Origin: Naegleria gruberi
Taxonomy: Eukaryota
Reading direction: 5' to 3' (one strand)
Length of the DNA: 64,000 nt
Assembly (NCBI GenBank): GCA_000004985.1
Contig: GG738921.1
In this document: one piece after another, positions 3,804 to 64,000 of the stretch
How positions within the stretch are numbered: the stretch's first letter is position 1
How the letters are laid out: every line of letters begins with the position of its first letter
Notes under the pieces: generated by a model
Told to the model about the DNA's origin: nothing
Databases searched by the model: none
Seen by the model: only the letters and a program-made list of their open reading frames with translations
Position numbers and translations under genes: made by a program

Positions 3804-4580
3804 TTACATGTGAGAGTTGGATTTGATTCGTTTGATTTCAATGACTGGCTTTGGAACAATAGTTTGAATGGTGGCAGCTCTACCTCTTGTTGTTGTTGTT
3901 GAATTAAATTCGTATGAGAAGGCAGAAAATGAAAGTCTCTTCTTACTAGTAGTATGGAAAGAAGTGGATTTGAAATCTTGATTGGTGGCAGATTGTTGTG
4001 GAGGTGGAGTATTCAAAAGCTCGAATTGAGGAACTAACAGAGTTTGTGAATTGGAGCTCACAGCTGGGAATGTAAAGTTGCCAAGAGGAGAAATTGGTGG
4101 AGTAATTTGATGGAATCTTGTGTTGGTAGTGTGGACAATTGACTTGGAAGGACTCTTTTTGAGTTTTGGAATCGATGGCTCTACTTCTTGTTGTACCGAA
4201 ATAATTGGAATGGTCAAGTGAAGATTGGAAGCTTGTTTCATCAGGATTGGTTGAAGTTTTGAAGAGGAAGCAACCTTTGATATTGGAGAGATGGAAATGG
4301 ATTTGGTTCTGACGAGAATTGGTTTTGGTAAGGCAGCAACACCCTTAGAAGAAGCAACAGCAGGAATGCCAACACTCTGATTGTCCCTCTCATATAAATT
4401 ATGTAAATCAAGTATATTCTCATGCATTAAAAAGTATCCATTCAAATCCAGCACACAACCTTCATACGATTGTTCAGCCAACATCACAACACATGTCCAC
4501 ACGGAGACCAATAAACCTTTGAGTAATTGCCAGAGTGCGCTATAGCCGATTAAACTAGTTGAGTAAGAAGTGGAAGTCAT
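3804..4580 (-). CDS. Hypothetical S/T/P-rich protein with N-terminal hydrophobic segment (possible signal anchor)
   Basis: 258-aa ORF from ATG at 4580. The N-terminus has a hydrophobic stretch, LLKGLLVSVWTCVVML. The rest is low-complexity S/T/P-rich. No recognisable domain. Confidence 0.4.
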   Translation of the reverse strand: MTSTSYSTSLIGYSALWQLLKGLLVSVWTCVVMLAEQSYEGCVLDLNGYFLMHENILDLHNLYERDNQSVGIPAVASSKGVAALPKPILVRTKSISISPISKVASSSKLQPILMKQASNLHLTIPIISVQQEVEPSIPKLKKSPSKSIVHTTNTRFHQITPPISPLGNFTFPAVSSNSQTLLVPQFELLNTPPPQQSATNQDFKSTSFHTTSKKRLSFSAFSYEFNSTTTTRGRAATIQTIVPKPVIEIKRIKSNSHM

Positions 4581-6528: not shown

Positions 6529-9035
6529 ACTTTATTTTGTTGATCTATGAAAAACCTGCTCTTTACACATGTATTGGAACATTCAAGCAAGATAGATTGT
6601 GTCGAAGGAGTAATCAAGGAAAGGAAATAATCATAATCACTCCTTAGTTCTTCAGATGCGAATGCAAAATTGAGAGCTGAGGATGAAACAGCCATTCTAA
6701 CAATATCCTTATCATTTCTTAATCTATTAGATGCGAAAGCTAAAGATGTTGAATCTGAACTGACTGCCAATTTGACAATTTCTTCTGTATCTCTTATTCT
6801 ATCAGATGCATACTTTAGCAGCGAACCACTATTCTTCAAAATGAGAAGCATAAACTTTGTGTCATCATTTAAATTCAATAACAATTTCTCAATAATATGG
6901 CTATCAATACTTTCATGAAACCGTAAAATAGAGGCAATAATTGACTGTGATAGATTTTGTGGATCTACATGTGCAAAAATTCTACCATGACGTCCACAAG
7001 AGGTTAAAATTGTATCCAGTAAATCTTCATCCTCATAATTGAGCATTTCAAAAGAAAAATTGTCGTATGGGTAGAAAACACCAGAATATATCTTGATGAT
7101 ATTCACGTGACTTGAATTAAAGTAGGCAAGGGATGCTTCTTGTAGCCGTTTCACAAAGGGAAGGTAAATCTCTCCCATATTGCAAAAAAAGTAATTCGTA
7201 CCCTTAACTGATTTGGAGCATGGATCCATGCAATAGAGAGCATATTCACCATAATAATCCAATAATTTTTCATTGAAATGATCTCCATAGATGGAAATAA
7301 AGTATTCTCTATCAAAAAATAGCATTGGATGAGCATATTGCAATGAGGGTTTCTTTTGTGATGGTGGCCTGAGCTGTTGATGAAGTAAGACAAGCTCGGT
7401 CTTGAATTCATCCTTTCCAAAAGAACGACAAATAATCATCTCATAAACTTTTTCCTCTCTAAATCCTTGTTTCAATGCCATATTTACACATTCCTTAATT
7501 ATTTCAATGTTTCCCCTTAATGATCTCGAAAAATTTGCAAATGAGAGAGCATTTCTGCTTGTGGCAAATCTCATAAATTCTGAATTGTTCTTTAAATTAT
7601 CAGAAGCAAACTCTATTATTCTCCAATCAATATCATACATCTGTTTGACAAATTCAAAGTCATCTCTCAATTCCAAAGTAGCACACTTAAAAAATGTATA
7701 GCTCCTTCTCACCAACAGTTCAATAAGATGATGATTAGATCTTAATTCTTTAGGAAATTGCATTGCCGTTTTTAAATCAAATGCTGGTAGAATTGATTTG
7801 ATGAATTCTGCATTCTTCCTTATTGAATCACCAAATAAATTCAATATACTTCCATTTTTAGATAAAAGTTCTTTAGCAACAGAAATGGAATTACGAATCT
7901 CTTTCGATACAAACTCAATCAATTCGTGTTCCCTCTTCAATATTGGTAGTATCAAATCTAAATTGCTCCTCAATCTCTCAGATGCATATTTGAGGGCTTT
8001 TGGGTAGAGTCTTGTGACAATTTGTAAAATCTCCTCGTCATCTACCTCAAAGGATCCATCAAAAACATTTTTCAATACACCTAAATCATCTTTGGCATAC
8101 CTGACTACTTCCTTGATGGTGAAAAATCGTTTTGGAATGAAAGAGGGTGGCAATAGCTCCTTCTCAACTACCATTCTCCAAAATTCTTCTCCTTGTGGTT
8201 GGTAGAGTTGTGAAAATTGCTTGTTGTTATCCTTGTTCATTACCAATTTGAGAGCTAGCTCTGAATATATCTCCTTTTTAATCCATTTACATACGTTCAA
8301 CTCTCCATTCTCCAGTGCAGTGCCTACTATCTCTGGGTCTGCTTTAAATTTTGAATTTGAATATCTGAGCACTGATCCGTAATATTTTACAGCTTGTAAC
8401 ACCAATTCCCTATTCGACTTGATTTCTTTTGCCTTCTTTTTCAATTCTGTATCATTTCTCAATTTTTCACACGTCACATATTTGAATATTCTTGTAGTAA
8501 ACCTAAACAATCCAACAATTCCCAACTCATCCTCATCAGAAAAATCAATTTTTCTCCTCACTTTCTGCAAATCATTTCCACACTCAGATAAATCCAAAGC
8601 AGCTTCCAATAATTCTCTATCAGATCGTAACTCTTTACTGGCAGAACGAAAGCAAACCTGATGCTCCTTCACCACACTCATCATAAACTGCCTATCACTC
8701 GTCAATTGCTGTGATGCATATCTAATCAACCACCCTCTCAACATGATCAATTTCTTCATAAATCCAAAATCATTATTTTCAATCAATGGAAATCTTTTCA
8801 CAAAACATCTCACCGAATAATTATCCTCACACTTTTTCAAACATTCAATATATTCCATCTTTTTTTTAAATAATGCTAATTGATCAATTAATCGGAATTT
8901 TCGTAATTTGTGGAAATTAATATTGTGTGAGTAGAGGTTGGAATTCTTGCATGGTTCCGAGAGGTCATCGAGTAGAATAATAACTGGTTCTCGCCATGAT
9001 GATGATGGTACCATCATTGGCATGGTTGTGTCCAT
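6525..9035 (-). CDS. DUF4116-repeat protein (at least 10 tandem repeats of the [FY]AS.ELR.D.E.V..AV unit), single exon
   Basis: 836-aa ORF. Repeats are YASQQLTSDRQFMMSVVKEH, SASKELRSDRELLEAALD, YASERLRSNLDL, FASDNLKNNSEFMRFA, YASDRIRDTEEIVKLAV, FASNRLRNDKDIVRMAV and FASEELRSDYDYF. The stop codon overlaps the stop of the convergent C2 gene by 4 bp. Confidence 0.75.
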   Translation of the reverse strand: MDTTMPMMVPSSSWREPVIILLDDLSEPCKNSNLYSHNINFHKLRKFRLIDQLALFKKKMEYIECLKKCEDNYSVRCFVKRFPLIENNDFGFMKKLIMLRGWLIRYASQQLTSDRQFMMSVVKEHQVCFRSASKELRSDRELLEAALDLSECGNDLQKVRRKIDFSDEDELGIVGLFRFTTRIFKYVTCEKLRNDTELKKKAKEIKSNRELVLQAVKYYGSVLRYSNSKFKADPEIVGTALENGELNVCKWIKKEIYSELALKLVMNKDNNKQFSQLYQPQGEEFWRMVVEKELLPPSFIPKRFFTIKEVVRYAKDDLGVLKNVFDGSFEVDDEEILQIVTRLYPKALKYASERLRSNLDLILPILKREHELIEFVSKEIRNSISVAKELLSKNGSILNLFGDSIRKNAEFIKSILPAFDLKTAMQFPKELRSNHHLIELLVRRSYTFFKCATLELRDDFEFVKQMYDIDWRIIEFASDNLKNNSEFMRFATSRNALSFANFSRSLRGNIEIIKECVNMALKQGFREEKVYEMIICRSFGKDEFKTELVLLHQQLRPPSQKKPSLQYAHPMLFFDREYFISIYGDHFNEKLLDYYGEYALYCMDPCSKSVKGTNYFFCNMGEIYLPFVKRLQEASLAYFNSSHVNIIKIYSGVFYPYDNFSFEMLNYEDEDLLDTILTSCGRHGRIFAHVDPQNLSQSIIASILRFHESIDSHIIEKLLLNLNDDTKFMLLILKNSGSLLKYASDRIRDTEEIVKLAVSSDSTSLAFASNRLRNDKDIVRMAVSSSALNFAFASEELRSDYDYFLSLITPSTQSILLECSNTCVKSRFFIDQQNKV

Positions 9036-48252: not shown

Positions 48253-49516
48253 TTTGATGTAATTTTTTTAAAATTTTAATTATAATAAAATTAAAAGATT
48301 TCTTGTTGTGATGGTGATCATCAAATAGTGAAGATTCAGACCATTAGTATTAAAATTCAAGTTTGTTGTTATCAATTAAATCAAACAAATAAAAAATTTG
48401 AAAAAAAAATAATCACTTCATCTCAGCATTGCTGATTATCTTCATCATTTCAATACGGAATACATTGATATTCAATGTACATCATCTTTGGATATCCATC
48501 AATAGTAGAATAGTAATTTTATTGTTTGAAATTTTAATCATCAAGAAATTTAATATCATCATCACTTGGGAAAAATTTCAAATCAATAAATACATCTCGG
48601 ATGTTGTTAGAACAGGTTAATTTGCTGTTCTAATAGTATTTTAAATAGTATTCCGCAAGTTTACTCTTTGAAATTATTTTTAATTTGGCTCAAAGTCGAT
48701 TTTCATCAAAATCATTAAAATCGGCCTATCTACTTGGTCATCACAAAAACCATCAATTGGAGATTGTTCATAATAGTAAATAGTATTTGTGGGGTCAATT
48801 TTGGAGACTGGATCTTTGTCTTCATTGGAATAGATACAAGATTATTTTCAACATGTAATGAATAATACCTCGTCATCTACTTGACCAAATCAAAAACTTT
48901 CTTCTAGTAGTACTATTTATTTTCACAATATATAACATCTTCATCGTTACTTTCTTCAATAGCATTGTCATTGTCATGGTGGAGGTTTCATCACCTATCC
49001 ACACATGTACAATATCGGAACATCATTCCAATATCATGGAGATGCTCCAATAAGTGTGGAGAATCATCCCACCAAGTTTTTTATCTTTAATAAAAGTGTT
49101 TCTCTTTTTTCACACTTTCTCAAGATTTGCAATTGTTCCTTCACATGATACTATTGATTTCAGAATCATATTTTGTTGTTAATTTTCAAAATGGATCATT
49201 ATTTGAGGAGATTTTGAGATACTTGATTTTACAGATCTAATAAAATTGCAGATACATTTTGTAATAACTGCTTAACATGAACTTCTGCAAAATTACAACA
49301 AACAAGCATTCAATAAGGCGGACATTTCCTATTGTCCTCGATGAATATTGATTCTTGAATATATTACTAATGAAAGAATGCGTGCGCAGCAGTATTTTTC
49401 ATTCTCACTAGTATAACCAAGTAGAAGTTTGTTTTAAAAATTTAAAAACTTCAAAAAAAATTAAATCACTTCTCGCCCACAACAAACTTGCAGCAGCACA
49501 TCATTTCTTTAGAAGA

Positions 49517-50593
49517 ATGACAAGTACTGGCACCTCCTCCAGTAATGGTAGAACCATGAAGATTTTGGTAGAGAGGGTTATTATGAATGATAATTCAGCA
49601 ACATCTTCATCTTTGAATACAACAATACCTGATCATTGGGATGTTCCGAAAAATTCATCATCTTCAACATCTTCACCTACTACAGTAGTAATACCTCCAG
49701 AAAAGTTTAAAGATCCTTGGATTGGAGTGAATCATGATAAATCAGTACTCGATGGAATGTCAATGATGAAGGATTTCTTATTTAATTCACCATCAATTCC
49801 GAGTGATGAAGAACTTCCTCAATTGAAACCGAATTGGGATAAATTAATGAACCCTAGTGAGTCTTCTGATGAATATCAAGTGACATGGATTGGACATTCG
49901 ACCTTTCTCATTCAGTACAGAGGTGTAAATATAATAACAGATCCTGTATTTTCAGAGAGATGTAGTCCTTCACAGTATTTTGGTCCAAAGAGAATTAAAC
50001 CAATTCCATTTCCAGATATCTCTAAATTGCCAAAGATTCATTTTGTGATTATATCTCATAATCACTACGATCATTTGGATGAACATGCATTCAAAGAGAT
50101 ACAGAAACATCATGATCCAATTTTCTTGTTACCATTCAAAATGAAATACAAGTGGATGATGAAACATTATTCAAATAGTGATGCCGAGAAGGAAAAACTT
50201 GTAGATTTGGATTGGTGGAAGGAAACTACATTCAAGGTTACAGCTGAGAATCAGACAGTTTCCAATCTGTCATTCGTATGTCTGCCAGCTCAGCATTGGA
50301 GTTCAAGAACAGGGTTTGATAGAAATCACGTCTTGTGGGGTTCTTGGGGATTCAAGTTTGATTATACTGATGGCAATGAGAATGTGACAAGATCTTTCTG
50401 GCATGCAGGTGATACAGGTTACAAGTAAGTAGACTTTTAATATTCATTCCTTAATAATTTTTTCAATAGTGGACAAACATTTAATCAAATTGGAGAACGA
50501 TTTGGTCCAATTGACTTTTCAATGATTCCAATTGGTGCCTATGAACCACGTTGGTTCATGAGTGATCAACATGTTGATCCAGAAGAAGCCATT
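49517..50593 (+). CDS. NAPE-PLD-like metallo-beta-lactamase-fold (zinc) hydrolase; exon 1 49517..50424, intron 50425..50469 (45 nt), exon 2 50470..50593 continuing into N-gap 50594-50867 (3' partial)
   Basis: [32 protein letters not shown] (metal-binding HxHxDH), AGDTGY|N|[40 protein letters not shown]. This closely matches the conserved C-terminal block of animal NAPE-PLD (..[33 protein letters not shown]). The N-terminal ~110 aa are S/T-rich. Confidence 0.8.
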
Positions 50594-50867
50594 NNNNNNN
50601 NNNNNNNNNNNNNNNNNNNNNNNNNNNNNNNNNNNNNNNNNNNNNNNNNNNNNNNNNNNNNNNNNNNNNNNNNNNNNNNNNNNNNNNNNNNNNNNNNNNN
50701 NNNNNNNNNNNNNNNNNNNNNNNNNNNNNNNNNNNNNNNNNNNNNNNNNNNNNNNNNNNNNNNNNNNNNNNNNNNNNNNNNNNNNNNNNNNNNNNNNNNN
50801 NNNNNNNNNNNNNNNNNNNNNNNNNNNNNNNNNNNNNNNNNNNNNNNNNNNNNNNNNNNNNNNNNNN

Positions 50868-50990
50868 GAAAGTAATTTTCTAATTATGAAGAATTGAAAC
50901 ACTATTCATGAATTGTTTGAAATTGTCATCTGTTGCAACAATGGAAGATTTCAATTATAATCATGAACAAATATTTGTGAAAATAAGGCA
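50868..50990 (+). pseudogene. Decayed fragment of a third kinase-HECT gene 3' end (HECT C-terminus) immediately after N-gap
   Basis: Sequence ..TATGAAGAATT-GAAACACTATTCATGAATTGTTTGAAATTGTCATCTGTTGCAACAATGGAAGAT.. encodes (E)TLFMNCLKLSSVATMED. That is near-identical to the C-termini of the two HECT genes (FETLFMNCLRLSSVATMED). It has a 1-nt deletion upstream, in YEEF, that breaks the frame. Confidence 0.5.
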
Positions 50991-51119: not shown

Positions 51120-54100
51120 ATGTCAACAACATTCGACCAAGTCTTCCATGCAGTTTCGGAAGGAAACATTGAATTTTTGAGACACATTGATTTACGTCCA
51201 TTTATTAATCATGAACAAGATGATCCCGACGATGAAGGTATTGTTACATTATTATGTACAGCGTGCGGCAGAGGACATTTGAAAATTGTAGAATTATTAT
51301 TGAATGTTGATGGAGTTGATGTAAACAAATGTGTATGTTTTCATAGATTAATTATTTGATGTTGAATGTAAATCTTTGAAATTTATATATGAAAATAGGG
51401 ACCGTTGTTTTTTGCTTGCCAAAACGGATACGTAGAAATTGTAAAATTATTGTTGAGTGTTGATGGAATTGATGTTAATCAAATTGTATGTAATAATGGA
51501 ATGAATAATGGAATGGTATATTTATATTAATGATTTTTATGATTATCTATAATAGAGAGTGTTACGTGAAGCATGTGAAAAAGGCTATTTTGAAATTGTA
51601 AAATTATTATTGGACTTTGATGGAATTAATGTTGACGCTTATGTATGTAGCAAATATTAATATTAAGAAGTTTAATATTAATTCTTCTTATTAGAAAGCA
51701 TTGCATGGAGCATGTTATGGAGGGAATTTTAATATTGTAAAATTATTACTTGCCAAGAATGCTCGAATAGGAAAAGAAGAAAGAAAAGAATATGATAAAA
51801 AAATCAAACCGAAAGTAAGTTTAGTTTTCAGATAAGTGTCAAATATAGTCCAATATTAGTTCAATCTCGAATATACTTTGGATGAATTAAAGGATAAAAT
51901 CTCACAATTACGAATTCAACATTGGAGAAATGTGANNNNNNNNNNNNNNNNNNNNNNNNNNNNNNNNNNNNNNNNNNNNNNNNNNNNNNNNNNNNNNNNN
52001 NNNNNNNNNNNNNNNNNNNNNNNNNNNNNNNNNNNNNNNNNNNNNNNNNNNNNNNNNNNNNNNNNNNNNNNNNNNNNNNNNNNNNNNNNNNNNNNNNNNN
52101 NNNNNNNNNNNNNNNNNNNNNNNNNNNNNNNNNNNNNNNNNNNNNNNNNNNNNNNNNNNNNNNNNNNNNNNNNNNNNNNNNNNNNNNNNNNNNNNNNNNN
52201 NNNNNNNNNNNNNNNNNNNNNNNNNNNNNNNNNATAATGATAAGAGAGAGTTGATAAATGAAATTGAAAGAGTTGAAAATAGTTTGAGAGAACATGAAGT
52301 TAATTTTGAATGTTTCCAAAATGTTAACAAATTGAAATTGAAAAAGAAAGATTTGTTCAAGTCACTAGCTGAAATCAAAGACAAAATAGAAGATATTGAA
52401 TATGCTAAAGACACACTTATATTCGAAATTAAAACTCAAAAAAGAAACAAGATTGGTAAAGTTGAGGAAATTGAAAGATTGGAGAAGAAACTTTCTGACA
52501 TGATTCAGGAATTATCAAACATGCACGAAAGAAAATCAGAAATCCAAAACGACTTGATGGAGCTGATTCCTAAATTTCCTGAAATTATTATTGAAATGGA
52601 ACAACCATTAGCAATAGATGGTGTTGTCATTTCATCATCAATGACACCAAAAGAAAAATTCAGAGTATTTGCACTTCAAAACTCTATTTTACTTTTAAAT
52701 ACTCAATTTTCAAATTATACTAACATTCAAACACTTCACACTGGATTATCAGTTGTTTACAAAGCAAGCAAATCTAATAGTCAGGTGGTTATTCTCAAAG
52801 AAATTTCTCTTTCAGAAAATAATTGTGAAACAGTAATGAATGAAATTATGAATTTGGTTATACTCAAAGGTCATCCTAGAATTATCAAATTGAATGGTGT
52901 ATTTATTGAATCACAATTTAATAAGGTTTATATTGAAACACCATATTATTCAAATGGAAATTTACTGGAGTATATCAACAAGATTAGAAATCATCATGAT
53001 TTACCAACTTTGAAGAACATGTTGAGAAGTTTATTTAGAAAAATGACAGAAACACTTCAATTTATCCATTCCAAAGATATTCTGCACAGAGATTTAAAAC
53101 CTCAAAATATTTTGGTGAATGAAAATGGAGAACCAATTATTGCAGATTTTGGATCAAGTAAGAAACTAATTGCTCAATTGACAAATAATACAATGGGAGT
53201 TGGAACATTGAAATATATGGCACCAGAAGTGAAAAGACAAGAAGAATCACCAAGTGAAAAATCAGACATTTGGTCATTGGGTGTTTCATTGTATGAATGT
53301 TGGCAATTGATTCAACAAATAAGTATGATGAATAATGCAACAGTTGAAATATTGAACTTTGACTCGAAGGGTAAGGTAGTTTTACCTACCAGTACTTTGA
53401 ATGATGAAATTGATATAACATTGATGAAAATGTTGAGTCACATGTTCAATAGCAATCCAGAAGACAGACCAAGTTCATTAACACTACTGACAGATTCAGA
53501 TTATTTCACAAATGAAAATCCTACAACAGATATACTTTCTAAATCTAATCAAAAAGAATTGGAAGGTTCTGAAAAGATATCACTTTGGCAAGCAAGATTA
53601 AAGAAGATGAAACAATTTTTGCCTGAAAGCACAGAAGGAGAAATCAAGGTTGACATCTATAGACACCGTCTATTGGAAGATATTGCCTCTATATATAAGG
53701 ATTTGATACCAATAGGGTATTCAGTGATATTTTACAAAACATTTGTGAAATATAAGGGAGAGACTGGAATAGACGCAGGAGGATTATCCAATGAGATGTA
53801 TTCTAAATATATTGAAGCCATACTGGAAAGCAAACATTTTCAAAATAGCGAAAGCTCACCAAATGAAAATTTCATTTTAACTGATGAACCACTCACAGAT
53901 GAATCTAAAAATCAATTGAGAACACTTGGGTTGTTATTGAAAAAGTTATTAATTGACTGTGACGACAAGACAGTTTATCTTCCATTGAATAGCTTTATAT
54001 TTTATTATTTATTGAATGGAAATGCTCTCAACAAAGAAACACTCCAATTTAATGCTATATCCCTTTTACTATCAAAATTCTTGAGAGAATATGATTTTGA

Positions 54101-54773
54101 ATTGGATAATCAAATATTTAGTGTGAAAAAATGTAAAAATGATGAAGAATTACAATCAATTACAATGGAAGAAACATTTATTGATGTTTTATCAAAGAGT
54201 GAGAAACCATTAATAATGGAAAATGTTCAATTATTCATCATTTCACAATTATATTCATATTTTTATTCTGATTTAAAGATTGAAAAATTGAAATTAATCA
54301 AACAAGGATTTGACTGGTTTAATTTGACTAAATTCAAACAAAGCTCAAAATTACCACCCAAGTTGAAAGAATTCCTAGACCTCCAAGGATCAAATTTTGA
54401 TGAGAAGTGTTTGAGTGTGAATGAATTGAAAATTCTCCTCTCAGGTCAATCATATATTGATGCTGATTTATTATTGAATGAAATAGACATGACCAGAATT
54501 TCACCAATAATGCAAGATCACTTCACTAAATGTATTAGAAAATTAACAAAAAGTCAATTGAGACAATTACTTGTTTGGATGACTTCACTTTCAAGCATTC
54601 CAATCAGAGGTTTTTCAAGAAAGATCTCAATTCGTGAATATAACAGATTTGAATCTCATACCTGTTCATTTGTATTTGATATTCCATCTCAAATAACCAA
54701 TTATGAACAATTTGAAACTCAATTCATGAATTGTTTGAGATTGTCATCTGTTGCAACTATGGAAGATCAATAG
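51120..54773 (+). CDS. Ankyrin-repeat / coiled-coil / protein kinase / HECT ubiquitin-ligase multidomain protein (copy A); exons 51120..51332, 51399..51485, 51556..51642, 51695..51814, 51860..(gap 51936-52233)..54773; introns 66, 70, 52, 45 nt
   Basis: Four ANK repeats, one per exon (..GPLFFACQNGYVEIVKLLLSVDGIDVNQI, RVLREACEKGYFEIVKLLLDFDGINVDAY, KALHGACYGGNFNIVKLLLAKNA). A coiled-coil region follows. The kinase domain has VVILKEI (K), HRDLKPQNILV, ADFGSSK, GTLKYMAPE and DIWSLGVSLYE. The HECT domain has GIDAGGLSNEMY and ..FESHTCSFVFDIPSQITNYEQFETQFMNCL, including the catalytic Cys. Confidence 0.8.
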
Positions 54774-55423
54774 GACAATTCTTGTTGGTATTCTTGTCAC
54801 TGCACCAACAGGATTAATTAGAGTATTACTGACTGGTGGTAGTACTTGAGCAATTGGTGGTTGATTCAAATCTACGATCATTATCAGAATTCATTAAAAT
54901 CCAGCTTCTGAAGTGCAGCTTTGATTAGCTTGCCCCAATTCAGTGGAAATTGTTTTTCTTGCATTTGTAAATCATATAATCATCAAATTTAAGGTACTCA
55001 ATTACTTTTGAAGTTTTGGAACTAAGCTGATTTGATATTGTGTTTTTTCTTTGATGGATTGAAATCCTAAGAAGAATTCATGTTATTGCCAACGAACATA
55101 CAACAAGCAACAATAAGGGTAGAACGAGATTGGATGTTTTAAGTGATAATCACTTATTATCCAATAAAAAAAATTCAGCAAATGGCTCTTTGTGTCTGAT
55201 TTTCGGAAGCACACCATCTACCATCTATTTAATTTTTATTGGAGTTCTGATCATTTTGGAATTTATTCTTCATAACCCAATTGGAATCATCATCAATGTT
55301 TTCCAATTATCAAAATAATATTAGTATTTTTGTGGAAATTATTGTATCTATGATTTTACGGTGGTATACAGATATTTCTTTAATATAGCAAAGCATTAAA
55401 GATGATGAAAATTGGAGTGGGTA

Positions 55424-57949
55424 TTAATTCTCCAAAGTGTTCTCCGTATCATTGAAATCTTCCATTGTTGCAACAGATGACAATCTCAAACAATTCATGA
55501 ATAGTGTTTCAAATTCTTCATAAGTGGTTATTTGTGAAGGAATATCAAATGAGAAAGAACATGTATGGGCTTCAAATCTTTTTTGCTCACGAATTGAGAT
55601 CTTTCTTGAAAAACCTCTAATCGGAATGCTTGAAAGTGCTGTCATCCAAACAAGTAATTGTCTCAATTGACTATTTGTTAATTTTCTTATACATTTAGTG
55701 AGGAAATCTTTCATAGTTTCCGAAACAAAATAGAAATTAATTTCATTTAACAATAAATCATCATCAATATATGATTGACCTGATAGGAGAATTTTCAATT
55801 CATTCACACTCAAATCTTGTTCAACAAAGTTTGGTCCTTGAAGGTGGAAAAATTCTCTCAATTCAGATTCAGTTGAAATACTAAAACTACAAATCAATTG
55901 AGTTTTGAATTGTTTCAAATTGAACCAATCAAATCCTTCTTTGATTAATTTCAATTTTTCCATTCTTATAGCACTGTAAAAGTATGGATGTAATTGAGAA
56001 ATGATATAGAGATGGATATTGTCCATAATAAGTGGTTTCTCAGTCTTTGATAAAACATCTGTGAACGTTTCTTCATATGCAATAGATTGTAATTCCTTAT
56101 CATTCTTACATTTTCTCAGATTCATAATTTGATTATCTAATTCAAAATCATATTCTCTCAAGAATTTTGAAAGTGTCAAGATCATGTCATTGATGTGTAG
56201 TGCTTGTTTCTTATAAATTATATCACCATTCAATAAATAATAGAATATAAAACTATTCAATGGAAGATAAACTGTCTTGTCGTCACAGTCAATTAATAAC
56301 TTTTTCAATAACCATCCAAAGGCCTTTAACTGAATTCTTGATTCATCTGTGAGTGGTTCATCAGTTAGAATGAAATTTTCGTTGGAAGATGTTTCACTCT
56401 TTTGAAAATGTTTGCTTTCCATTAACATGGATTCAGTATATTTGGAATAGAGTTCATTTGACAAACCTCCTACGTCTATCCCTTTCTCTTCCTTAAATTT
56501 TACAAATGTTTTGTAAAATATTGAATAGTTGTTATCTTTAGTCATGACTTTTTCAACAGTTAAAGAAGTATCTGTCAATAAATTTTCTCTGTCTATGTCA
56601 AATCTAATTTCGTTGCTAGGTGAAACTAAATAACCTTCTCTTCGGGCTAACGCAAGTTGTTTGAGTTTTTTCAATCTTGCCTGCCACAATGATAACTTTT
56701 CGGAGCTATCTAGTTTTTGATTTGATGTAGAAAGTAATTCGACAGTAATTGGATTTTCATTTGTGAAATAATCTCCATTTTCATTCACCAAAATATTTTG
56801 AGGTTTTAAATCTCTGTGAAGAATATCTTTGGAATGAATAAATTGAAGTGTTTCCGTGATTTTTCTAAATAAACTTCTCAACATGATTTTCAAAGTTTTA
56901 GTGTCGTGTTGAGGTTTAATCTTGTTGACATATTCCAATAAATTTCCATTTGAATAATATGGCGTTTCAATATAAATCTTATTAAAATTAGGTTCGATGA
57001 ACACACCATTCAATTTGATAATTCTTGAATGTACTTTCAATCTTACAATATTCATAATTTCATTCATAATAGCATCACAATTATTGTCTGTTGATTGAGA
57101 AAGTGAAATTTCTTTAAGAATAACCACTTGATTGTTTGACTTGCTTGATTTGTAGACAACTGATAATCCACTATGAACTGTTCCCATGATTGTATAATTT
57201 GAAAATTGAGTATTAAAAAGAAATATTGAGTTTTGAAGTGCAAATATTCTGAATTTTTCTTCAGGTGTGTTGCTTGTTGAAATAACAACACCATCTGCTG
57301 TTAGTGGTTGTTTCATTTCTACAATTATTTCTGGGAATGTTGAAATCAATTCCATTAAATTCTGTTCAATTTCTGTTTTTTGTTCATTCAATTCGGAAAT
57401 CTTTTTTCCCATTTCAGAAAGTTTCTTCTCCAATCTTTCAATATCTTCATTGTTTGTTCCAATTTTGTTTTTTCTAAGCTTTTTAATTTGAAGTCCAATT
57501 TCGTCCTTTTCCAAATCAATTTCATCAATGTCGTCCTTAATTAAGGCAAGTGATTTTAAAAGATCTTTCTTTTTCAATTTCAACTTGTTAATATTTTGAA
57601 AACATTCAAGATTTGTTGCATTTTCTCTAATGTTATCTTCCATTCTCTCAACTTGTTCCAACAATTCCTTGTTGTCCTTATCAAATTCACTTAATTTTCC
57701 AGAATAGTTTGTAATTATTTCGTCTCTAATTCTATCTCTCTCTTCAGTAAGTAGATACAACTCTTTAAATTCAACACTCTTTTCACAAGCGGACATTTCA
57801 GAGATTTGTTTTTCGATTCTATTTAATTCTTTTTTGAGCAAATGAATAGTTTGAGCTGATTTTGGAATTCTCACAACTGGTTCAACAACTGTAATACGAC
57901 TTGCTTCCATTAATTGATTTTCCAAAATTTTGATTCGTTCTAAATGTTC
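55424..57949 (-). CDS. Paralog (copy B) of the coiled-coil / kinase / HECT protein, with an in-frame ~117-codon deletion removing the kinase DFG/activation-loop/APE/C-lobe; 5' end lost in N-gap 57950-62085
   Basis: Same coiled-coil (LECFQNINKLKLKKKDLLKSLALIKDDIDEID..), kinase N-lobe and catalytic loop (VVILKEISL, HRDLKPQNILVNENG). It then jumps directly to DYFTNENPITVELL at about 56775. An intact HECT domain follows: GIDVGGLSNELY, ..FEAHTCSFSFDIPSQITTYEEFETLFMNCL. The ORF remains open into the gap at its 5' side. Confidence 0.75.
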   Translation of the reverse strand, partial: EHLERIKILENQLMEASRITVVEPVVRIPKSAQTIHLLKKELNRIEKQISEMSACEKSVEFKELYLLTEERDRIRDEIITNYSGKLSEFDKDNKELLEQVERMEDNIRENATNLECFQNINKLKLKKKDLLKSLALIKDDIDEIDLEKDEIGLQIKKLRKNKIGTNNEDIERLEKKLSEMGKKISELNEQKTEIEQNLMELISTFPEIIVEMKQPLTADGVVISTSNTPEEKFRIFALQNSIFLFNTQFSNYTIMGTVHSGLSVVYKSSKSNNQVVILKEISLSQSTDNNCDAIMNEIMNIVRLKVHSRIIKLNGVFIEPNFNKIYIETPYYSNGNLLEYVNKIKPQHDTKTLKIMLRSLFRKITETLQFIHSKDILHRDLKPQNILVNENGDYFTNENPITVELLSTSNQKLDSSEKLSLWQARLKKLKQLALARREGYLVSPSNEIRFDIDRENLLTDTSLTVEKVMTKDNNYSIFYKTFVKFKEEKGIDVGGLSNELYSKYTESMLMESKHFQKSETSSNENFILTDEPLTDESRIQLKAFGWLLKKLLIDCDDKTVYLPLNSFIFYYLLNGDIIYKKQALHINDMILTLSKFLREYDFELDNQIMNLRKCKNDKELQSIAYEETFTDVLSKTEKPLIMDNIHLYIISQLHPYFYSAIRMEKLKLIKEGFDWFNLKQFKTQLICSFSISTESELREFFHLQGPNFVEQDLSVNELKILLSGQSYIDDDLLLNEINFYFVSETMKDFLTKCIRKLTNSQLRQLLVWMTALSSIPIRGFSRKISIREQKRFEAHTCSFSFDIPSQITTYEEFETLFMNCLRLSSVATMEDFNDTENTLEN

Positions 57950-60900
57950 NNNNNNNNNNNNNNNNNNNNNNNNNNNNNNNNNNNNNNNNNNNNNNNNNNN
58001 NNNNNNNNNNNNNNNNNNNNNNNNNNNNNNNNNNNNNNNNNNNNNNNNNNNNNNNNNNNNNNNNNNNNNNNNNNNNNNNNNNNNNNNNNNNNNNNNNNNN
58101 NNNNNNNNNNNNNNNNNNNNNNNNNNNNNNNNNNNNNNNNNNNNNNNNNNNNNNNNNNNNNNNNNNNNNNNNNNNNNNNNNNNNNNNNNNNNNNNNNNNN
58201 NNNNNNNNNNNNNNNNNNNNNNNNNNNNNNNNNNNNNNNNNNNNNNNNNNNNNNNNNNNNNNNNNNNNNNNNNNNNNNNNNNNNNNNNNNNNNNNNNNNN
58301 NNNNNNNNNNNNNNNNNNNNNNNNNNNNNNNNNNNNNNNNNNNNNNNNNNNNNNNNNNNNNNNNNNNNNNNNNNNNNNNNNNNNNNNNNNNNNNNNNNNN
58401 NNNNNNNNNNNNNNNNNNNNNNNNNNNNNNNNNNNNNNNNNNNNNNNNNNNNNNNNNNNNNNNNNNNNNNNNNNNNNNNNNNNNNNNNNNNNNNNNNNNN
58501 NNNNNNNNNNNNNNNNNNNNNNNNNNNNNNNNNNNNNNNNNNNNNNNNNNNNNNNNNNNNNNNNNNNNNNNNNNNNNNNNNNNNNNNNNNNNNNNNNNNN
58601 NNNNNNNNNNNNNNNNNNNNNNNNNNNNNNNNNNNNNNNNNNNNNNNNNNNNNNNNNNNNNNNNNNNNNNNNNNNNNNNNNNNNNNNNNNNNNNNNNNNN
58701 NNNNNNNNNNNNNNNNNNNNNNNNNNNNNNNNNNNNNNNNNNNNNNNNNNNNNNNNNNNNNNNNNNNNNNNNNNNNNNNNNNNNNNNNNNNNNNNNNNNN
58801 NNNNNNNNNNNNNNNNNNNNNNNNNNNNNNNNNNNNNNNNNNNNNNNNNNNNNNNNNNNNNNNNNNNNNNNNNNNNNNNNNNNNNNNNNNNNNNNNNNNN
58901 NNNNNNNNNNNNNNNNNNNNNNNNNNNNNNNNNNNNNNNNNNNNNNNNNNNNNNNNNNNNNNNNNNNNNNNNNNNNNNNNNNNNNNNNNNNNNNNNNNNN
59001 NNNNNNNNNNNNNNNNNNNNNNNNNNNNNNNNNNNNNNNNNNNNNNNNNNNNNNNNNNNNNNNNNNNNNNNNNNNNNNNNNNNNNNNNNNNNNNNNNNNN
59101 NNNNNNNNNNNNNNNNNNNNNNNNNNNNNNNNNNNNNNNNNNNNNNNNNNNNNNNNNNNNNNNNNNNNNNNNNNNNNNNNNNNNNNNNNNNNNNNNNNNN
59201 NNNNNNNNNNNNNNNNNNNNNNNNNNNNNNNNNNNNNNNNNNNNNNNNNNNNNNNNNNNNNNNNNNNNNNNNNNNNNNNNNNNNNNNNNNNNNNNNNNNN
59301 NNNNNNNNNNNNNNNNNNNNNNNNNNNNNNNNNNNNNNNNNNNNNNNNNNNNNNNNNNNNNNNNNNNNNNNNNNNNNNNNNNNNNNNNNNNNNNNNNNNN
59401 NNNNNNNNNNNNNNNNNNNNNNNNNNNNNNNNNNNNNNNNNNNNNNNNNNNNNNNNNNNNNNNNNNNNNNNNNNNNNNNNNNNNNNNNNNNNNNNNNNNN
59501 NNNNNNNNNNNNNNNNNNNNNNNNNNNNNNNNNNNNNNNNNNNNNNNNNNNNNNNNNNNNNNNNNNNNNNNNNNNNNNNNNNNNNNNNNNNNNNNNNNNN
59601 NNNNNNNNNNNNNNNNNNNNNNNNNNNNNNNNNNNNNNNNNNNNNNNNNNNNNNNNNNNNNNNNNNNNNNNNNNNNNNNNNNNNNNNNNNNNNNNNNNNN
59701 NNNNNNNNNNNNNNNNNNNNNNNNNNNNNNNNNNNNNNNNNNNNNNNNNNNNNNNNNNNNNNNNNNNNNNNNNNNNNNNNNNNNNNNNNNNNNNNNNNNN
59801 NNNNNNNNNNNNNNNNNNNNNNNNNNNNNNNNNNNNNNNNNNNNNNNNNNNNNNNNNNNNNNNNNNNNNNNNNNNNNNNNNNNNNNNNNNNNNNNNNNNN
59901 NNNNNNNNNNNNNNNNNNNNNNNNNNNNNNNNNNNNNNNNNNNNNNNNNNNNNNNNNNNNNNNNNNNNNNNNNNNNNNNNNNNNNNNNNNNNNNNNNNNN
60001 NNNNNNNNNNNNNNNNNNNNNNNNNNNNNNNNNNNNNNNNNNNNNNNNNNNNNNNNNNNNNNNNNNNNNNNNNNNNNNNNNNNNNNNNNNNNNNNNNNNN
60101 NNNNNNNNNNNNNNNNNNNNNNNNNNNNNNNNNNNNNNNNNNNNNNNNNNNNNNNNNNNNNNNNNNNNNNNNNNNNNNNNNNNNNNNNNNNNNNNNNNNN
60201 NNNNNNNNNNNNNNNNNNNNNNNNNNNNNNNNNNNNNNNNNNNNNNNNNNNNNNNNNNNNNNNNNNNNNNNNNNNNNNNNNNNNNNNNNNNNNNNNNNNN
60301 NNNNNNNNNNNNNNNNNNNNNNNNNNNNNNNNNNNNNNNNNNNNNNNNNNNNNNNNNNNNNNNNNNNNNNNNNNNNNNNNNNNNNNNNNNNNNNNNNNNN
60401 NNNNNNNNNNNNNNNNNNNNNNNNNNNNNNNNNNNNNNNNNNNNNNNNNNNNNNNNNNNNNNNNNNNNNNNNNNNNNNNNNNNNNNNNNNNNNNNNNNNN
60501 NNNNNNNNNNNNNNNNNNNNNNNNNNNNNNNNNNNNNNNNNNNNNNNNNNNNNNNNNNNNNNNNNNNNNNNNNNNNNNNNNNNNNNNNNNNNNNNNNNNN
60601 NNNNNNNNNNNNNNNNNNNNNNNNNNNNNNNNNNNNNNNNNNNNNNNNNNNNNNNNNNNNNNNNNNNNNNNNNNNNNNNNNNNNNNNNNNNNNNNNNNNN
60701 NNNNNNNNNNNNNNNNNNNNNNNNNNNNNNNNNNNNNNNNNNNNNNNNNNNNNNNNNNNNNNNNNNNNNNNNNNNNNNNNNNNNNNNNNNNNNNNNNNNN
60801 NNNNNNNNNNNNNNNNNNNNNNNNNNNNNNNNNNNNNNNNNNNNNNNNNNNNNNNNNNNNNNNNNNNNNNNNNNNNNNNNNNNNNNNNNNNNNNNNNNNN

Positions 60901-62754
60901 NNNNNNNNNNNNNNNNNNNNNNNNNNNNNNNNNNNNNNNNNNNNNNNNNNNNNNNNNNNNNNNNNNNNNNNNNNNNNNNNNNNNNNNNNNNNNNNNNNNN
61001 NNNNNNNNNNNNNNNNNNNNNNNNNNNNNNNNNNNNNNNNNNNNNNNNNNNNNNNNNNNNNNNNNNNNNNNNNNNNNNNNNNNNNNNNNNNNNNNNNNNN
61101 NNNNNNNNNNNNNNNNNNNNNNNNNNNNNNNNNNNNNNNNNNNNNNNNNNNNNNNNNNNNNNNNNNNNNNNNNNNNNNNNNNNNNNNNNNNNNNNNNNNN
61201 NNNNNNNNNNNNNNNNNNNNNNNNNNNNNNNNNNNNNNNNNNNNNNNNNNNNNNNNNNNNNNNNNNNNNNNNNNNNNNNNNNNNNNNNNNNNNNNNNNNN
61301 NNNNNNNNNNNNNNNNNNNNNNNNNNNNNNNNNNNNNNNNNNNNNNNNNNNNNNNNNNNNNNNNNNNNNNNNNNNNNNNNNNNNNNNNNNNNNNNNNNNN
61401 NNNNNNNNNNNNNNNNNNNNNNNNNNNNNNNNNNNNNNNNNNNNNNNNNNNNNNNNNNNNNNNNNNNNNNNNNNNNNNNNNNNNNNNNNNNNNNNNNNNN
61501 NNNNNNNNNNNNNNNNNNNNNNNNNNNNNNNNNNNNNNNNNNNNNNNNNNNNNNNNNNNNNNNNNNNNNNNNNNNNNNNNNNNNNNNNNNNNNNNNNNNN
61601 NNNNNNNNNNNNNNNNNNNNNNNNNNNNNNNNNNNNNNNNNNNNNNNNNNNNNNNNNNNNNNNNNNNNNNNNNNNNNNNNNNNNNNNNNNNNNNNNNNNN
61701 NNNNNNNNNNNNNNNNNNNNNNNNNNNNNNNNNNNNNNNNNNNNNNNNNNNNNNNNNNNNNNNNNNNNNNNNNNNNNNNNNNNNNNNNNNNNNNNNNNNN
61801 NNNNNNNNNNNNNNNNNNNNNNNNNNNNNNNNNNNNNNNNNNNNNNNNNNNNNNNNNNNNNNNNNNNNNNNNNNNNNNNNNNNNNNNNNNNNNNNNNNNN
61901 NNNNNNNNNNNNNNNNNNNNNNNNNNNNNNNNNNNNNNNNNNNNNNNNNNNNNNNNNNNNNNNNNNNNNNNNNNNNNNNNNNNNNNNNNNNNNNNNNNNN
62001 NNNNNNNNNNNNNNNNNNNNNNNNNNNNNNNNNNNNNNNNNNNNNNNNNNNNNNNNNNNNNNNNNNNNNNNNNNNNNNNNNNNNNAAAAATAAATGAGAT
62101 GGAGTATATTCTATATGTTGAAATATGACAATTTGACAGATTGTTATTATTATCATATTGAATTCGATTCTAAAACACTAAAAATGATACCAGTTGTATA
62201 TCAGTGTGACTAAACGTACATGGTAAAGTTACACGATAATAGGATGTACTTTCATTGAGATAGAGTGTACACTTGGATATAATCACTCTTGACATTGAAC
62301 ATTTACTGATTGACTGAATGTAAGTTTCATGAATTGTTTCAAAACGTATATAGATGTATATAAATGATGTATATAATGTGTGTTATCAATTCTAGACTAA
62401 TTTCATATAAAATAAGTGAGTTGGAGCATAATCTTTGATTTTATGTCAAAGTTCTATAGTAAAATGATAGAGTTGACAACTCAATATCTACTGAACCAAT
62501 ATTCATGAAATTGATATCATATGCTAATTAGAGTGTCTACATATCATGGTATTAATTTCAGTGAAAATAGAGTTGTTTCTGGTCCCTTCAGATTTCCATC
62601 CATTCTCCTGACAAATCACCATGTACTATCCACTGGATGTATTTCTTGAAATGAAATTATATAATTTGATGAAAGTACACTTTATTTGAGATGTAGAACT
62701 CGATATTATCATTTATTTTGAGATTAGTAACTTTTCCTAAAGTGTCATCCTTAG

Positions 62755-62943
62755 TTGGGTTTGGGTTTGGGTTTGGGTTTGGGTTTGGGTTTGGGTTTGG
62801 GTTTGGGTTTGGGTTTGGGTTTGGGTTTGGGTTTGGGTTTGGGTTTGGGTTTGGGTTTGGGTTTGGGTTTGGGTTTGGGTTTGGGTTTGGGTTTGGGTTT
62901 GGGTTTGGGTTTGGGTTTGGGTTTGGGTTTGGGTTTGGGTTGA
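62755..62943 (+). repeat. (GGGTTT)n / (TTTGGG)n telomere-type hexamer tract (~31 units), internal, followed by 50-nt N-gap
   Basis: Perfect tandem GTTTGG repeats begin at ..CCTTAGTTGGG|TTTGGG. Unique AT-rich sequence lies 5' of it. G-rich strand is on +, running 5' to 3' toward the window end. Confidence 0.85.
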
Positions 62944-62993
62944 NNNNNNNNNNNNNNNNNNNNNNNNNNNNNNNNNNNNNNNNNNNNNNNNNN

Positions 62994-63636
62994 GATTTTA
63001 CAGATCTAATAAAATTGCAGATACATTTTGTAATAACTGCTTAACATGAACTTCTGCAAAATTACAACAAGTCTATTGAACCAACAAGTTGCTGAAACAA
63101 GCATTCAATAAGGCGGACATTTCCTATTGTCCTCGATGAATTATTGATTCTTGAATATATTACTAATGAAAGAATGCGTGCGCAGCATATTTTTCATTCT
63201 CAAGTAACCAAGTAGAAGTTTGTTTTAAAAAATTTAACAACTCCAAAAAAAATTAAATCACTTCTCGCCCACAACAAACTTGCAGCAGCACATCATTTCT
63301 TTAGAAGAATGACAAGTACTGGCACCTCCTCCAGTAATGGTAGAACCATGAAGATTTTGGTAGAGAGGGTTATTATGAATGATAATTCAACAACATCATC
63401 TTTGAATACAACAATACCTGATCATTGGGATGTTCCGAAAAATTCATCATCTTTGGCATCTTCAACATCTTCACCTACTACAGTAGTAATACCTCCAGAA
63501 AAGTTTAAAGATCCTTGGATTGGAGTGAATCATGATAAATCAGTACTCGATGGAATGTCAATGATGAAGGATTTCTTATTTAATTCACCATCAATTCCGA
63601 GTGATAAAGAACTTCCTCAATTGAAACCGAATTGGG
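62994..63636 (+). repeat. Subtelomeric duplicate (~640 bp, ~96% identical) of 49225..49838 = NAPE-PLD promoter, 5' UTR and first ~107 codons, truncated and capped by telomere repeats
   Basis: Collinear with 49225-49838. Small differences are 26-bp and 9-bp in-frame insertions and a few substitutions (e.g. GATGAAGAA to GATAAAGAA). The identity ends at CCGAATTGGG, where the original continues ATAAATTAATG and the copy continues TTTGGGTTTGGG. Confidence 0.85.
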
Positions 63637-64000
63637 TTTGGGTTTGGGTTTGGGTTTGGGTTTGGGTTTGGGTTTGGGTTTGGGTTTGGGTTTGGGTTTG
63701 GGTTTGGGTTTGGGTTTGGGTTTGGGTTTGGGTTTGGGTTTGGGTTTGGGTTTGGGTTTGGGTTTGGGTTTGGGTTTGGGTTTGGGTTTGGGTTTGGGTT
63801 TGGGTTTGGGTTTGGGTTTGGGTTTGGGTTTGGGTTTGGGTTTGGGTTTGGGTTTGGGTTTGGGTTTGGGTTTGGGTTTGGGTTTGGGTTTGGGTTTGGG
63901 TTTGGGTTTGGGTTTGGGTTTGGGTTTGGGTTTGGGTTTGGGTTTGGGTTTGGGTTTGGGTTTGGGTTTGGGTTTGGGTTTGGGTTTGGGTTTGGGTTTG
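63634..64000 (+). repeat. Terminal (GGGTTT)n telomere-type repeat tract running to the end of the window (at least 60 units)
   Basis: Uninterrupted GGGTTT hexamers from 63634 to 64000. G-rich strand is oriented 5' to 3' toward the right end, as expected for a right-arm chromosome terminus. Confidence 0.85.

Follow-up and report, generated by a model that had tools for sequence, protein, structure and literature searches.

A tail-to-tail pair of kinase–HECT genes in Naegleria gruberi, one of them with a truncated kinase

Two paralogous genes lie tail to tail in the right-hand part of a 64,000-nucleotide stretch of Naegleria gruberi DNA (contig GG738921.1 of assembly GCA_000004985.1; this whole stretch is hereafter the window, and positions are counted from its first letter). 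The first, copy A, encodes ankyrin repeats, a coiled-coil-like stretch, a Ser/Thr protein kinase and a C-terminal HECT domain; the second, copy B, encodes coiled-coil-like, kinase and HECT parts on the opposite strand, with the back half of the kinase missing (table 1). Our favoured reading, to which we give a probability of roughly 0.8, is that both belong to the kinase–HECT family of Leishmania TKUL/HECT12, copy A being a predicted kinase-gated ubiquitin ligase and copy B a putative kinase-truncated ligase that has remained under constraint. It draws on the identity and fold of the domains, on conserved residues, on colinear homology and on selection statistics.

An earlier note on this DNA, made from the letters only, had proposed that a single polypeptide contains both a kinase and a HECT domain. 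Indeed, one continuous open reading frame (ORF) runs through both domains in each copy, and since neither a gap nor a stop splits the kinase from the HECT domain, the fusion is not an artefact. The same order is repeated in the orthologues of Naegleria lovaniensis and Willaertia, and single transcripts of Echinamoeba exundans (Trinity) and of an MMETSP protist carry both domains. The translation of copy A is 100% identical to a ‘predicted protein [Naegleria gruberi]’ at NCBI (P0001, 977 amino acids (aa)), in which Pfam calls Ank, Pkinase and HECT together. Another N. gruberi protein (P0002, 828 aa) corresponds to copy B; in it, the same profiles recover the kinase N-lobe only.

At the N-terminus of copy A, four ankyrin repeats are each encoded by a short exon of their own, as had been described. 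The three introns between these exons measure 52-70 nt and are of the GT..AG type, with donors that all read GTATGT or GTAAGT and acceptors that all read AG; over P0001 residues 10-150, Pfam reports Ank_2 (8.4e-23), Ank (7.4e-18) and Ank_3 (1.9e-14). Further downstream, P0001 splices 51814 to 52347, joining KPK straight to KDLFK. It thereby skips a probable additional exon (candidate 51864..51935, with an ORF from 51878) and bridges the gap 51936-52233 with an annotated intron. The intron takes out an in-frame part of the main ORF (52236-52346; NDKRELINEIERVENSLREHEVNFECFQNVNKLKLKK) with homology to copy B, and the deposited product of 977 aa probably falls short of the real one: the bridging intron is probably spurious, and the real protein would be longer, with more coiled coil. 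From 52236/52251 to 54773 the main ORF is uninterrupted through the coiled-coil-like region, the kinase and the HECT domain. The coiled coil that the two copies had been said to share is better called coiled-coil-like, as it rests on composition (E, K, L and I together make up ~54%, and Pro and Gly are almost absent) and on the homologous helix that precedes the kinase in Leishmania TKUL.

The kinase domain of copy A, which Pfam aligns over ORF residues 171-418, retains all catalytic residues, namely the beta3 Lys (K188 in ORF numbering), the alphaC Glu (in NEIMN), the HRD Asp, the DFG Asp and the APE motif; DIWSLG and DRP motifs are also present. Its closest relative among kinases in the PDB is 9gmp (‘Map kinase kinase-like protein’; E 1.2e-22), which comes top among more than 1,500 matches. 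Judged by its residues, the domain appears catalytically complete, with a Gly-rich loop that is degenerate. Outside the heteroloboseans, the kinase relatives nearest to copy A are P0005 (Tritrichomonas musculus, 990 aa; 175 bits) and P0006 (1345 aa; 150 bits), and the family profile detected a HECT domain in neither. This kinase lineage may therefore occur unfused as well, or the two proteins may have lost their HECT domain.

The C-terminal domain of copy A is called HECT (PF00632) by Pfam over residues 542-828, with E 1e-9 and 38.9 bits (gathering score 23.9). When a profile of three Naegleria sequences was compared with all PDB sequences, it returned HECT E3 ligases only, among them Rsp5 (6.5e-7), TOM1, E6AP, WWP1, HUWE1 and SMURF2, and it aligned the Naegleria SHTC onto the SHTCFN motif of Rsp5, which holds the catalytic Cys. 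AlphaFold2 (AF2) gave an unusable model from the three Naegleria sequences (predicted local distance difference test score (pLDDT) of 40), and this was replaced by a model from a 23-sequence family alignment, with a pLDDT of 92 and a predicted template modelling score of 0.91. The latter displays the bilobal HECT fold, with a large N-lobe, a hinge and a C-lobe; all 50 Foldseek matches listed from the PDB are HECT domains, headed by HUWE1 (6xz1; E 1.1e-15, template modelling score 0.70). Columns that do not vary among the 23 family members include the catalytic Cys as well as Glu and Asp within the GE.G.D.GG motif. Both features that had been picked out by eye, the GxDAGG motif of the N-lobe and a catalytic Cys within HTCSF, are found in copy A, where the Cys of ESHTCSF stands 36 residues before the end (aa 810 of the 845 of the ORF), in keeping with the (S/A)H(T/A)C context and the distance of ~35 residues that mark HECT E3 ligases. 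The domain is thus a structurally complete HECT.

Copy B is 70% identical to copy A over the block of coiled coil and kinase N-lobe and 67% identical over the block of linker and HECT domain (roughly 70% overall); its 5' end, predicted to code for ankyrin repeats, falls within the 4.1-kb gap 57950-62085. The two blocks meet at a junction between 56774 and 56773 (VNENG joined to DYFTNENP), which is exactly in frame and shows a 2-nt GA microhomology. The deletion starts just before the DFG motif, and with this motif go the activation loop, the APE and all that remains of the C-lobe, as far as the kinase domain extends; HRDLKPQN is retained. A clean, in-frame loss sparing the catalytic loop was thus rightly recognised from the outset, its size being 123 codons (369 bp) in the alignment of A with B rather than the ~117 codons (351 bp) first given. 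Without DFG, an activation loop and the remainder of a C-lobe (including APE and subdomains VIII-XI), copy B cannot phosphorylate, and its description as an in-frame HECT paralogue with a truncated kinase stands. The 369-bp segment was also considered as an intron of copy A, and rejected: it has no GT..AG ends and encodes a conserved kinase C-lobe that is found in N. lovaniensis as well.

Table 1. Positions of the kinase–HECT genes, their motifs and associated elements in the window.
Feature	Position	Strand	Basis or remark
Relic of HECT 3' end	50868..50990	+	aligned at DNA level with the 3' ends of both copies
Copy A, whole gene	51120..54773	+	ankyrin exons, coiled-coil-like stretch, Ser/Thr kinase, HECT
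Copy A, ankyrin exons	51120-51332, 51399-51485, 51556-51642, 51695-51814	+	exon mapping, splice sites
Copy A, probable further coding exon (FNLEYTLDELKDKISQLRIQHWRNV...)	51864..51935	+	open until gap 51936-52233
Copy A, coiled-coil-like region	52236..52658	+	in frame with kinase; homologous to copy B and TKUL pre-kinase helix
Copy A, Ser/Thr protein kinase	52659..53522	+	Pfam Pkinase 1.1e-41
Copy A, beta3 Lys (VVILK)	52785-52808	+	motif coordinates
Copy A, HRDLKPQN	53085-53108	+	motif coordinates
Segment absent from copy B (copy A positions)	53130-53498	+	369 bp, 123 codons
Copy A, DFG (ADFG)	53142-53153	+	motif coordinates
Copy A, APE (MAPE)	53217-53228	+	motif coordinates
Copy A, HECT with N-terminal helix	53577..54773	+	Pfam, PDB profile, AF2/Foldseek, invariant Cys
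Copy A, GIDAGG	53766-53783	+	
Copy A, HTCSF	54657-54671	+	catalytic Cys codon 54663-54665
Copy A, stop TAG	54771-54773	+	
Intergenic spacer, tail to tail	54774..55423	.	650 bp between the two stop codons
Copy B, whole ORF	55424..57949	−	open for 842 codons, enters gap at 57950
Copy B, stop TAA	55424-55426	−	
Copy B, HECT	55424..56695	−	67% identical to A; 345 bits with family HECT profile
Copy B, HTCSF	55553-55567	−	
Copy B, GIDVGG	56465-56482	−	
Copy B, kinase remnant (N-lobe, hinge, catalytic loop)	56765..57253	−	Pkinase profile 13-136 of 263 only
Copy B, HRDLKPQN	56795-56818	−	
Copy B, coiled-coil-like N-terminal region	57254..57949	−	open into 4.1-kb gap 57950-62085

The family to which the two genes belong emerged only from an exhaustive HMMER search, in which the Naegleria HECT profile gave 143 matches among 1.84 billion cluster representatives; word-indexed searches with HECT profiles had returned 1 and 6. 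By single-sequence phmmer, an upstream kinase was found in 31 of 141 matches (the Naegleria-type sequences P0001 and P0004 excluded), and in at least 20 of the 49 matches with >=330 residues upstream of the HECT domain, mostly among the closest relatives. Pfam confirms strong pairs of Pkinase and HECT behind varied N-termini (TPR, ankyrin, RCC1). Named members come from Willaertia magna (KAL9656336), Anaeramoeba ignava, A. flamelloides, Tieghemostelium lacteum and Dictyostelium discoideum, together with a Leishmania cluster annotated as ‘MAP kinase kinase-like protein’, ‘HECT12’ and LmjF.35.4000, which includes the 285-aa sequence of PDB 9gmp. The homology extends across the domain boundary: a single BLASTP high-scoring segment pair (498 columns, E 4e-37) aligns P0001 aa 195-662 with L. 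major LmjF.35.4000 aa 569-1018, and reaches from the pre-kinase helix across kinase and linker into the first part of the HECT domain with its GIDxG motif. Moreover, the kinases of proteins picked by their HECT domain score 80-93 bits against the Naegleria kinase, which corresponds to ranks 9-40 in a search of 5.8 billion proteins. These sequence comparisons point to a single kinase–HECT lineage in which the N-terminal repeat modules can be exchanged.

Two further patterns were seen among the members. An acidic tail of the form (S/A)T(M/L/V/Q)E(E/D) replaces the ...GF.. tail in copies A and B and in P0003, P0121, P0124, P0126, P0127, P0140 and P0232, which, going by these tails, would form a sub-branch of the family. 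Others combine a strong HECT domain with a weak or partial kinase (P0162 and P0172, below the Pfam gathering score, and P0136, in which mainly the N-lobe part is found), and this hints at a recurrent loss of kinase competence in kinase–HECT proteins, in parallel to copy B.

The nearest known system is Leishmania TKUL/HECT12 (LmxM.34.4000, LmjF.35.4000). It shares the whole layout, from repeats through a helical or coiled-coil segment, a kinase with a degenerate loop and a linker to a C-terminal HECT domain; the HECT profiles score mutually, and it is the TKUL kinase of L. mexicana (9gmp) that tops the PDB matches. It differs in two respects: its N-terminal module is TPR, whereas the Naegleria module is ankyrin and not TPR, and its HECT domain is canonical (182 bits in Pfam; tail ...NDGFH(V/I)A, with Phe at position −4), in contrast with the 38.9 bits and the acidic ...ATMEDQ of Naegleria. 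Orthologues from other heteroloboseans are Willaertia magna KAL9656336 (P0121) and N. lovaniensis C9374_012926 (P0003), the latter with 37% identity across 96% of the query; both have ankyrin repeats, a coiled coil, a kinase and a HECT-like domain with the Cys conserved (HAC/HSC). However, one gene with a full kinase was found in each, whereas N. gruberi has a pair, one of which is truncated. In Anaeramoeba ignava KAJ5079604 (Ank–kinase–HECT) and Tieghemostelium lacteum KYQ89671 (RCC1–kinase–HECT), the kinase is immediately N-terminal to a HECT domain of the same subfamily; the Echinamoeba exundans and MMETSP transcripts and metagenomic TPR–kinase–HECT proteins have the same kinase-before-HECT order with a variable repeat module. 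All of these differ from the Naegleria proteins by other recruitment modules and stronger HECT scores (E 1e-30 to 1e-57).

The architecture itself is therefore not new, contrary to what the earlier note had supposed. Protein kinase domains were recorded in some HECT proteins of N. gruberi and Ectocarpus in 2013 (Grau-Bové et al. 2013, PMC3673628), proteins whose identity with exactly copies A and B could not be confirmed. TKUL/HECT12 has been studied in Leishmania, down to the 9gmp structure, and dozens of further cases are retrieved by profile search; the same domain order is found in other protists, namely Willaertia, Anaeramoeba, dictyostelids, Echinamoeba and Leishmania. In L. mexicana, a hect12 null mutant loses fitness as promastigotes and as axenic amastigotes (PMC7647121), and according to a secondary mention in a preprint (bioRxiv 10.64898/2026.05.08.723729), both the kinase and the ligase activity of TKUL are important in amastigotes, the protein being a dual kinase/HECT ligase that must autophosphorylate to be active as a ligase. 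By their sequences, copies A and B are uncharacterised Naegleria members of this known family, an ankyrin variant with a divergent HECT tail. They define no new enzyme class, the architecture having been recorded for N. gruberi itself, and what is new is a modest detail: copy B, a sister copy cleanly deprived of the back half of its kinase.

The surroundings of the pair bear on how such a copy may have arisen. At the right end of the window are two perfect (GGGTTT)n arrays, at 62755-62941 (31 copies) and 63632-64000 (61.5 copies). The latter reaches the end of the window with its G-rich strand running 5'->3' outward, as at a telomere; the former adjoins a gap, and this position suggests that scaffolding brought in a further contig with a telomere of its own. 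Between the arrays, 62994-63636 is a truncated copy, 92.5% identical, of 49225-49838, and holds the upstream region and the first ~107 codons of the plus-strand gene at 49517, directly 5' of the cluster. It breaks off exactly where the GGGTTT array starts (...CCGAATTGGG followed directly by TTTGGG), and resembles either a disrupted gene copy capped by a newly added telomere or a second haplotype of the subtelomere. From these repeats, the kinase–HECT pair is probably subtelomeric, and in such a location duplications, relics and in-frame deletions are unsurprising.

One such relic lies just upstream of copy A, where a third, frame-shifted HECT 3' fragment had been noticed. Some 80 nt of it (50883 to 50960) align with the 3' end of the HECT domain, nearer to copy B than to copy A; the frameshift is due to a 1-nt deletion, one T lost from a TTT run, and the fragment directly adjoins the gap 50594-50867. 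When the readable part of the window was scanned in six frames with the HECT profile of the family and with the kinase, no further copy appeared and copy A alone was returned, copy B having been filtered out because its ORF merges with an N-run; the kinase–HECT proteins of N. gruberi in the protein collection are likewise two only. The proposal of a locally expanding family is thus weakly supported; what is seen is a small local family of two genes and one ~80-nt relic. Similar debris was seen in a Naegleria-like contig (L001; ENA ERZ2098899 NODE_46, 1.6x coverage, DNA ~81% identical to N. lovaniensis; the positions concerned, here and below, are 3853-4200 and 7500-8200), in which decayed, partly inverted HECT C-lobe fragments lie ~200 bp 5' of the gene start, in the relative position that the relic has in N. 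gruberi; this arrangement may be real or a misassembly at low coverage.

Several observations weigh against the reading of A as a kinase-gated ligase and B as a constrained, truncated one, and they are considered here with the alternatives that they favour. In the kinase, no GxGxxG Gly-rich loop is found: copy A has LHTGLSVVY there, copy B VHSGLSVVY and N. lovaniensis LHNGLSIVH, a degeneracy that recurs in 9gmp, the TKUL kinase (TLSSTVNSKVY).

Copy B could be a young pseudogene, recently disabled in a dynamic subtelomere, whose open frame and low ratio of non-synonymous to synonymous substitution rates (dN/dS) merely reflect recency. The deletion of the kinase C-lobe core, which makes a normal kinase fold impossible, fits this idea, as does the position of the locus ~5-6 kb from telomeric repeats, amid relics and gaps. 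Taking N. lovaniensis as the outgroup, the HECT C-lobe has moreover accumulated 1 lineage-specific change in A and 10 in B (p = 0.012, uncorrected for six tests), an excess that may reflect relaxed constraint. Yet the ORF of copy B has stayed intact over 842 codons in a genome of roughly 30% guanine plus cytosine, the deletion is exactly in frame, and overall rates are symmetric, with 39 lineage-specific substitutions in A and 41 in B. Its orphaned N-lobe has evolved as slowly as the functional N-lobe of A (6 changes in B and 7 in A), and the kinase-degenerate forms elsewhere in the family (P0162, P0172, P0136) suggest that such proteins persist. Between A and B, dN/dS is 0.19-0.29 across every region (0.19 in the N-lobe, 0.26 in the HECT domain), with a synonymous divergence (dS) of ~0.7. 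Copy B is thus still under purifying selection and does not look like a decaying pseudogene, even though neither the pairwise dN/dS nor the rates can date the deletion. We consider recent disablement unlikely, while granting it real weight.

In the second alternative, the HECT domain is a dead module akin to that of G2E3, kept as a scaffold or as a binder of ubiquitin or of the ubiquitin-conjugating enzyme (E2), and the protein is in effect a kinase with a HECT-shaped regulatory tail. The Phe at position −4 of the C-terminal tail has a role in the ligation step of NEDD4-type HECTs. This residue, present in canonical members and in TKUL, is replaced: copy A ends in ...ATMEDQ, copy B in ...ATMEDFNDTENTLEN and the N. 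lovaniensis protein in ...ATQEDR, and a few relatives have a comparable (M/L/V)EE end; ligase competence is therefore not assured. The domain is also strongly divergent, as Pfam, which scores it at 38.9 bits in A, leaves it uncalled in copy B and in the N. lovaniensis and Willaertia orthologues. In the contig L001, the orthologue is frameshifted and lacks ~35 codons around the catalytic Cys, which could be a real loss or a misassembly at low coverage, the contig being too error-prone (1.6×, frameshifts) to decide. Finally, the kinase-bearing HECTs of N. gruberi were placed in the G2E3-like class (class IV) ‘GL-Bikonta’, and the HECT domain of human G2E3 was reported as non-functional (Grau-Bové et al. 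2013, PMC3673628); this placement is that of the 2013 study. G2E3 and the Naegleria proteins do share a highly divergent HECT domain. However, G2E3 has PHD/RING-like fingers, no kinase and an inactive HECT domain, whereas the catalytic Cys is strictly conserved in the Naegleria family, along with the GxDxGG motif, in all 23 diverse members aligned. The confident model with a complete bilobal HECT fold, the dN/dS of the HECT region and the ligase activity reported for the Leishmania homologue, in the secondary mention cited above, also argue against a dead domain, which we regard as rather improbable.

Lastly, the idea that the fusion is an assembly or annotation artefact, whether a scaffold chimera or two adjacent genes joined, is effectively refuted: gaps do interrupt the scaffold (50594-50867, 51936-52233, 57950-62085, 62944-62993) and the public model crosses one of them by its doubtful intron, but the kinase–HECT interval is intact in both copies and the same colinear order recurs in separately made assemblies of N. 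lovaniensis, Willaertia, Anaeramoeba, Leishmania and dictyostelids as well as in de novo transcripts.

If copies A and B are indeed TKUL-like paralogues, their mode of action can be sketched by analogy with Leishmania TKUL/HECT12. In copy A, the ankyrin module would likely recruit partners or substrates, and the coiled-coil-like segment would likely serve self-association or oligomerisation. The kinase would most likely autophosphorylate the protein and so license the HECT domain, which would accept ubiquitin from an E2 at Cys810 (nt 54663-54665; numbered along the ORF) and pass it on to the targets recruited by the repeats. Copy B would stem from an old duplication (dS about 0.7), with kinase subdomains VII-XI lost later through the 369-bp in-frame deletion, and would most likely act either as a kinase-independent HECT ligase or after activation in trans by copy A. 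From the shared coiled coil, a closer functional link may be imagined, in which copy B, kinase-dead and kept by selection, pairs with copy A and is phosphorylated by it in trans. We hold this specific scenario to be quite doubtful; if true, a self-activating kinase–ligase would have been split into an activator and an effector, forming a natural separation-of-function system for the gating of a HECT domain by phosphorylation.

In any case, a kinase–HECT fusion couples two major chemistries of post-translational signalling within one enzyme, in a family of which Leishmania TKUL/HECT12 appears to be the only member characterised to date. With the Naegleria genes, this family extends to free-living heteroloboseans, with a recruitment module of ankyrin rather than TPR repeats and a HECT tail that has diverged further. 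The pair formed by A and B offers a natural comparison of a kinase-intact with a kinase-truncated putative ligase, and could possibly be of use in dissecting how autophosphorylation licenses a HECT domain.

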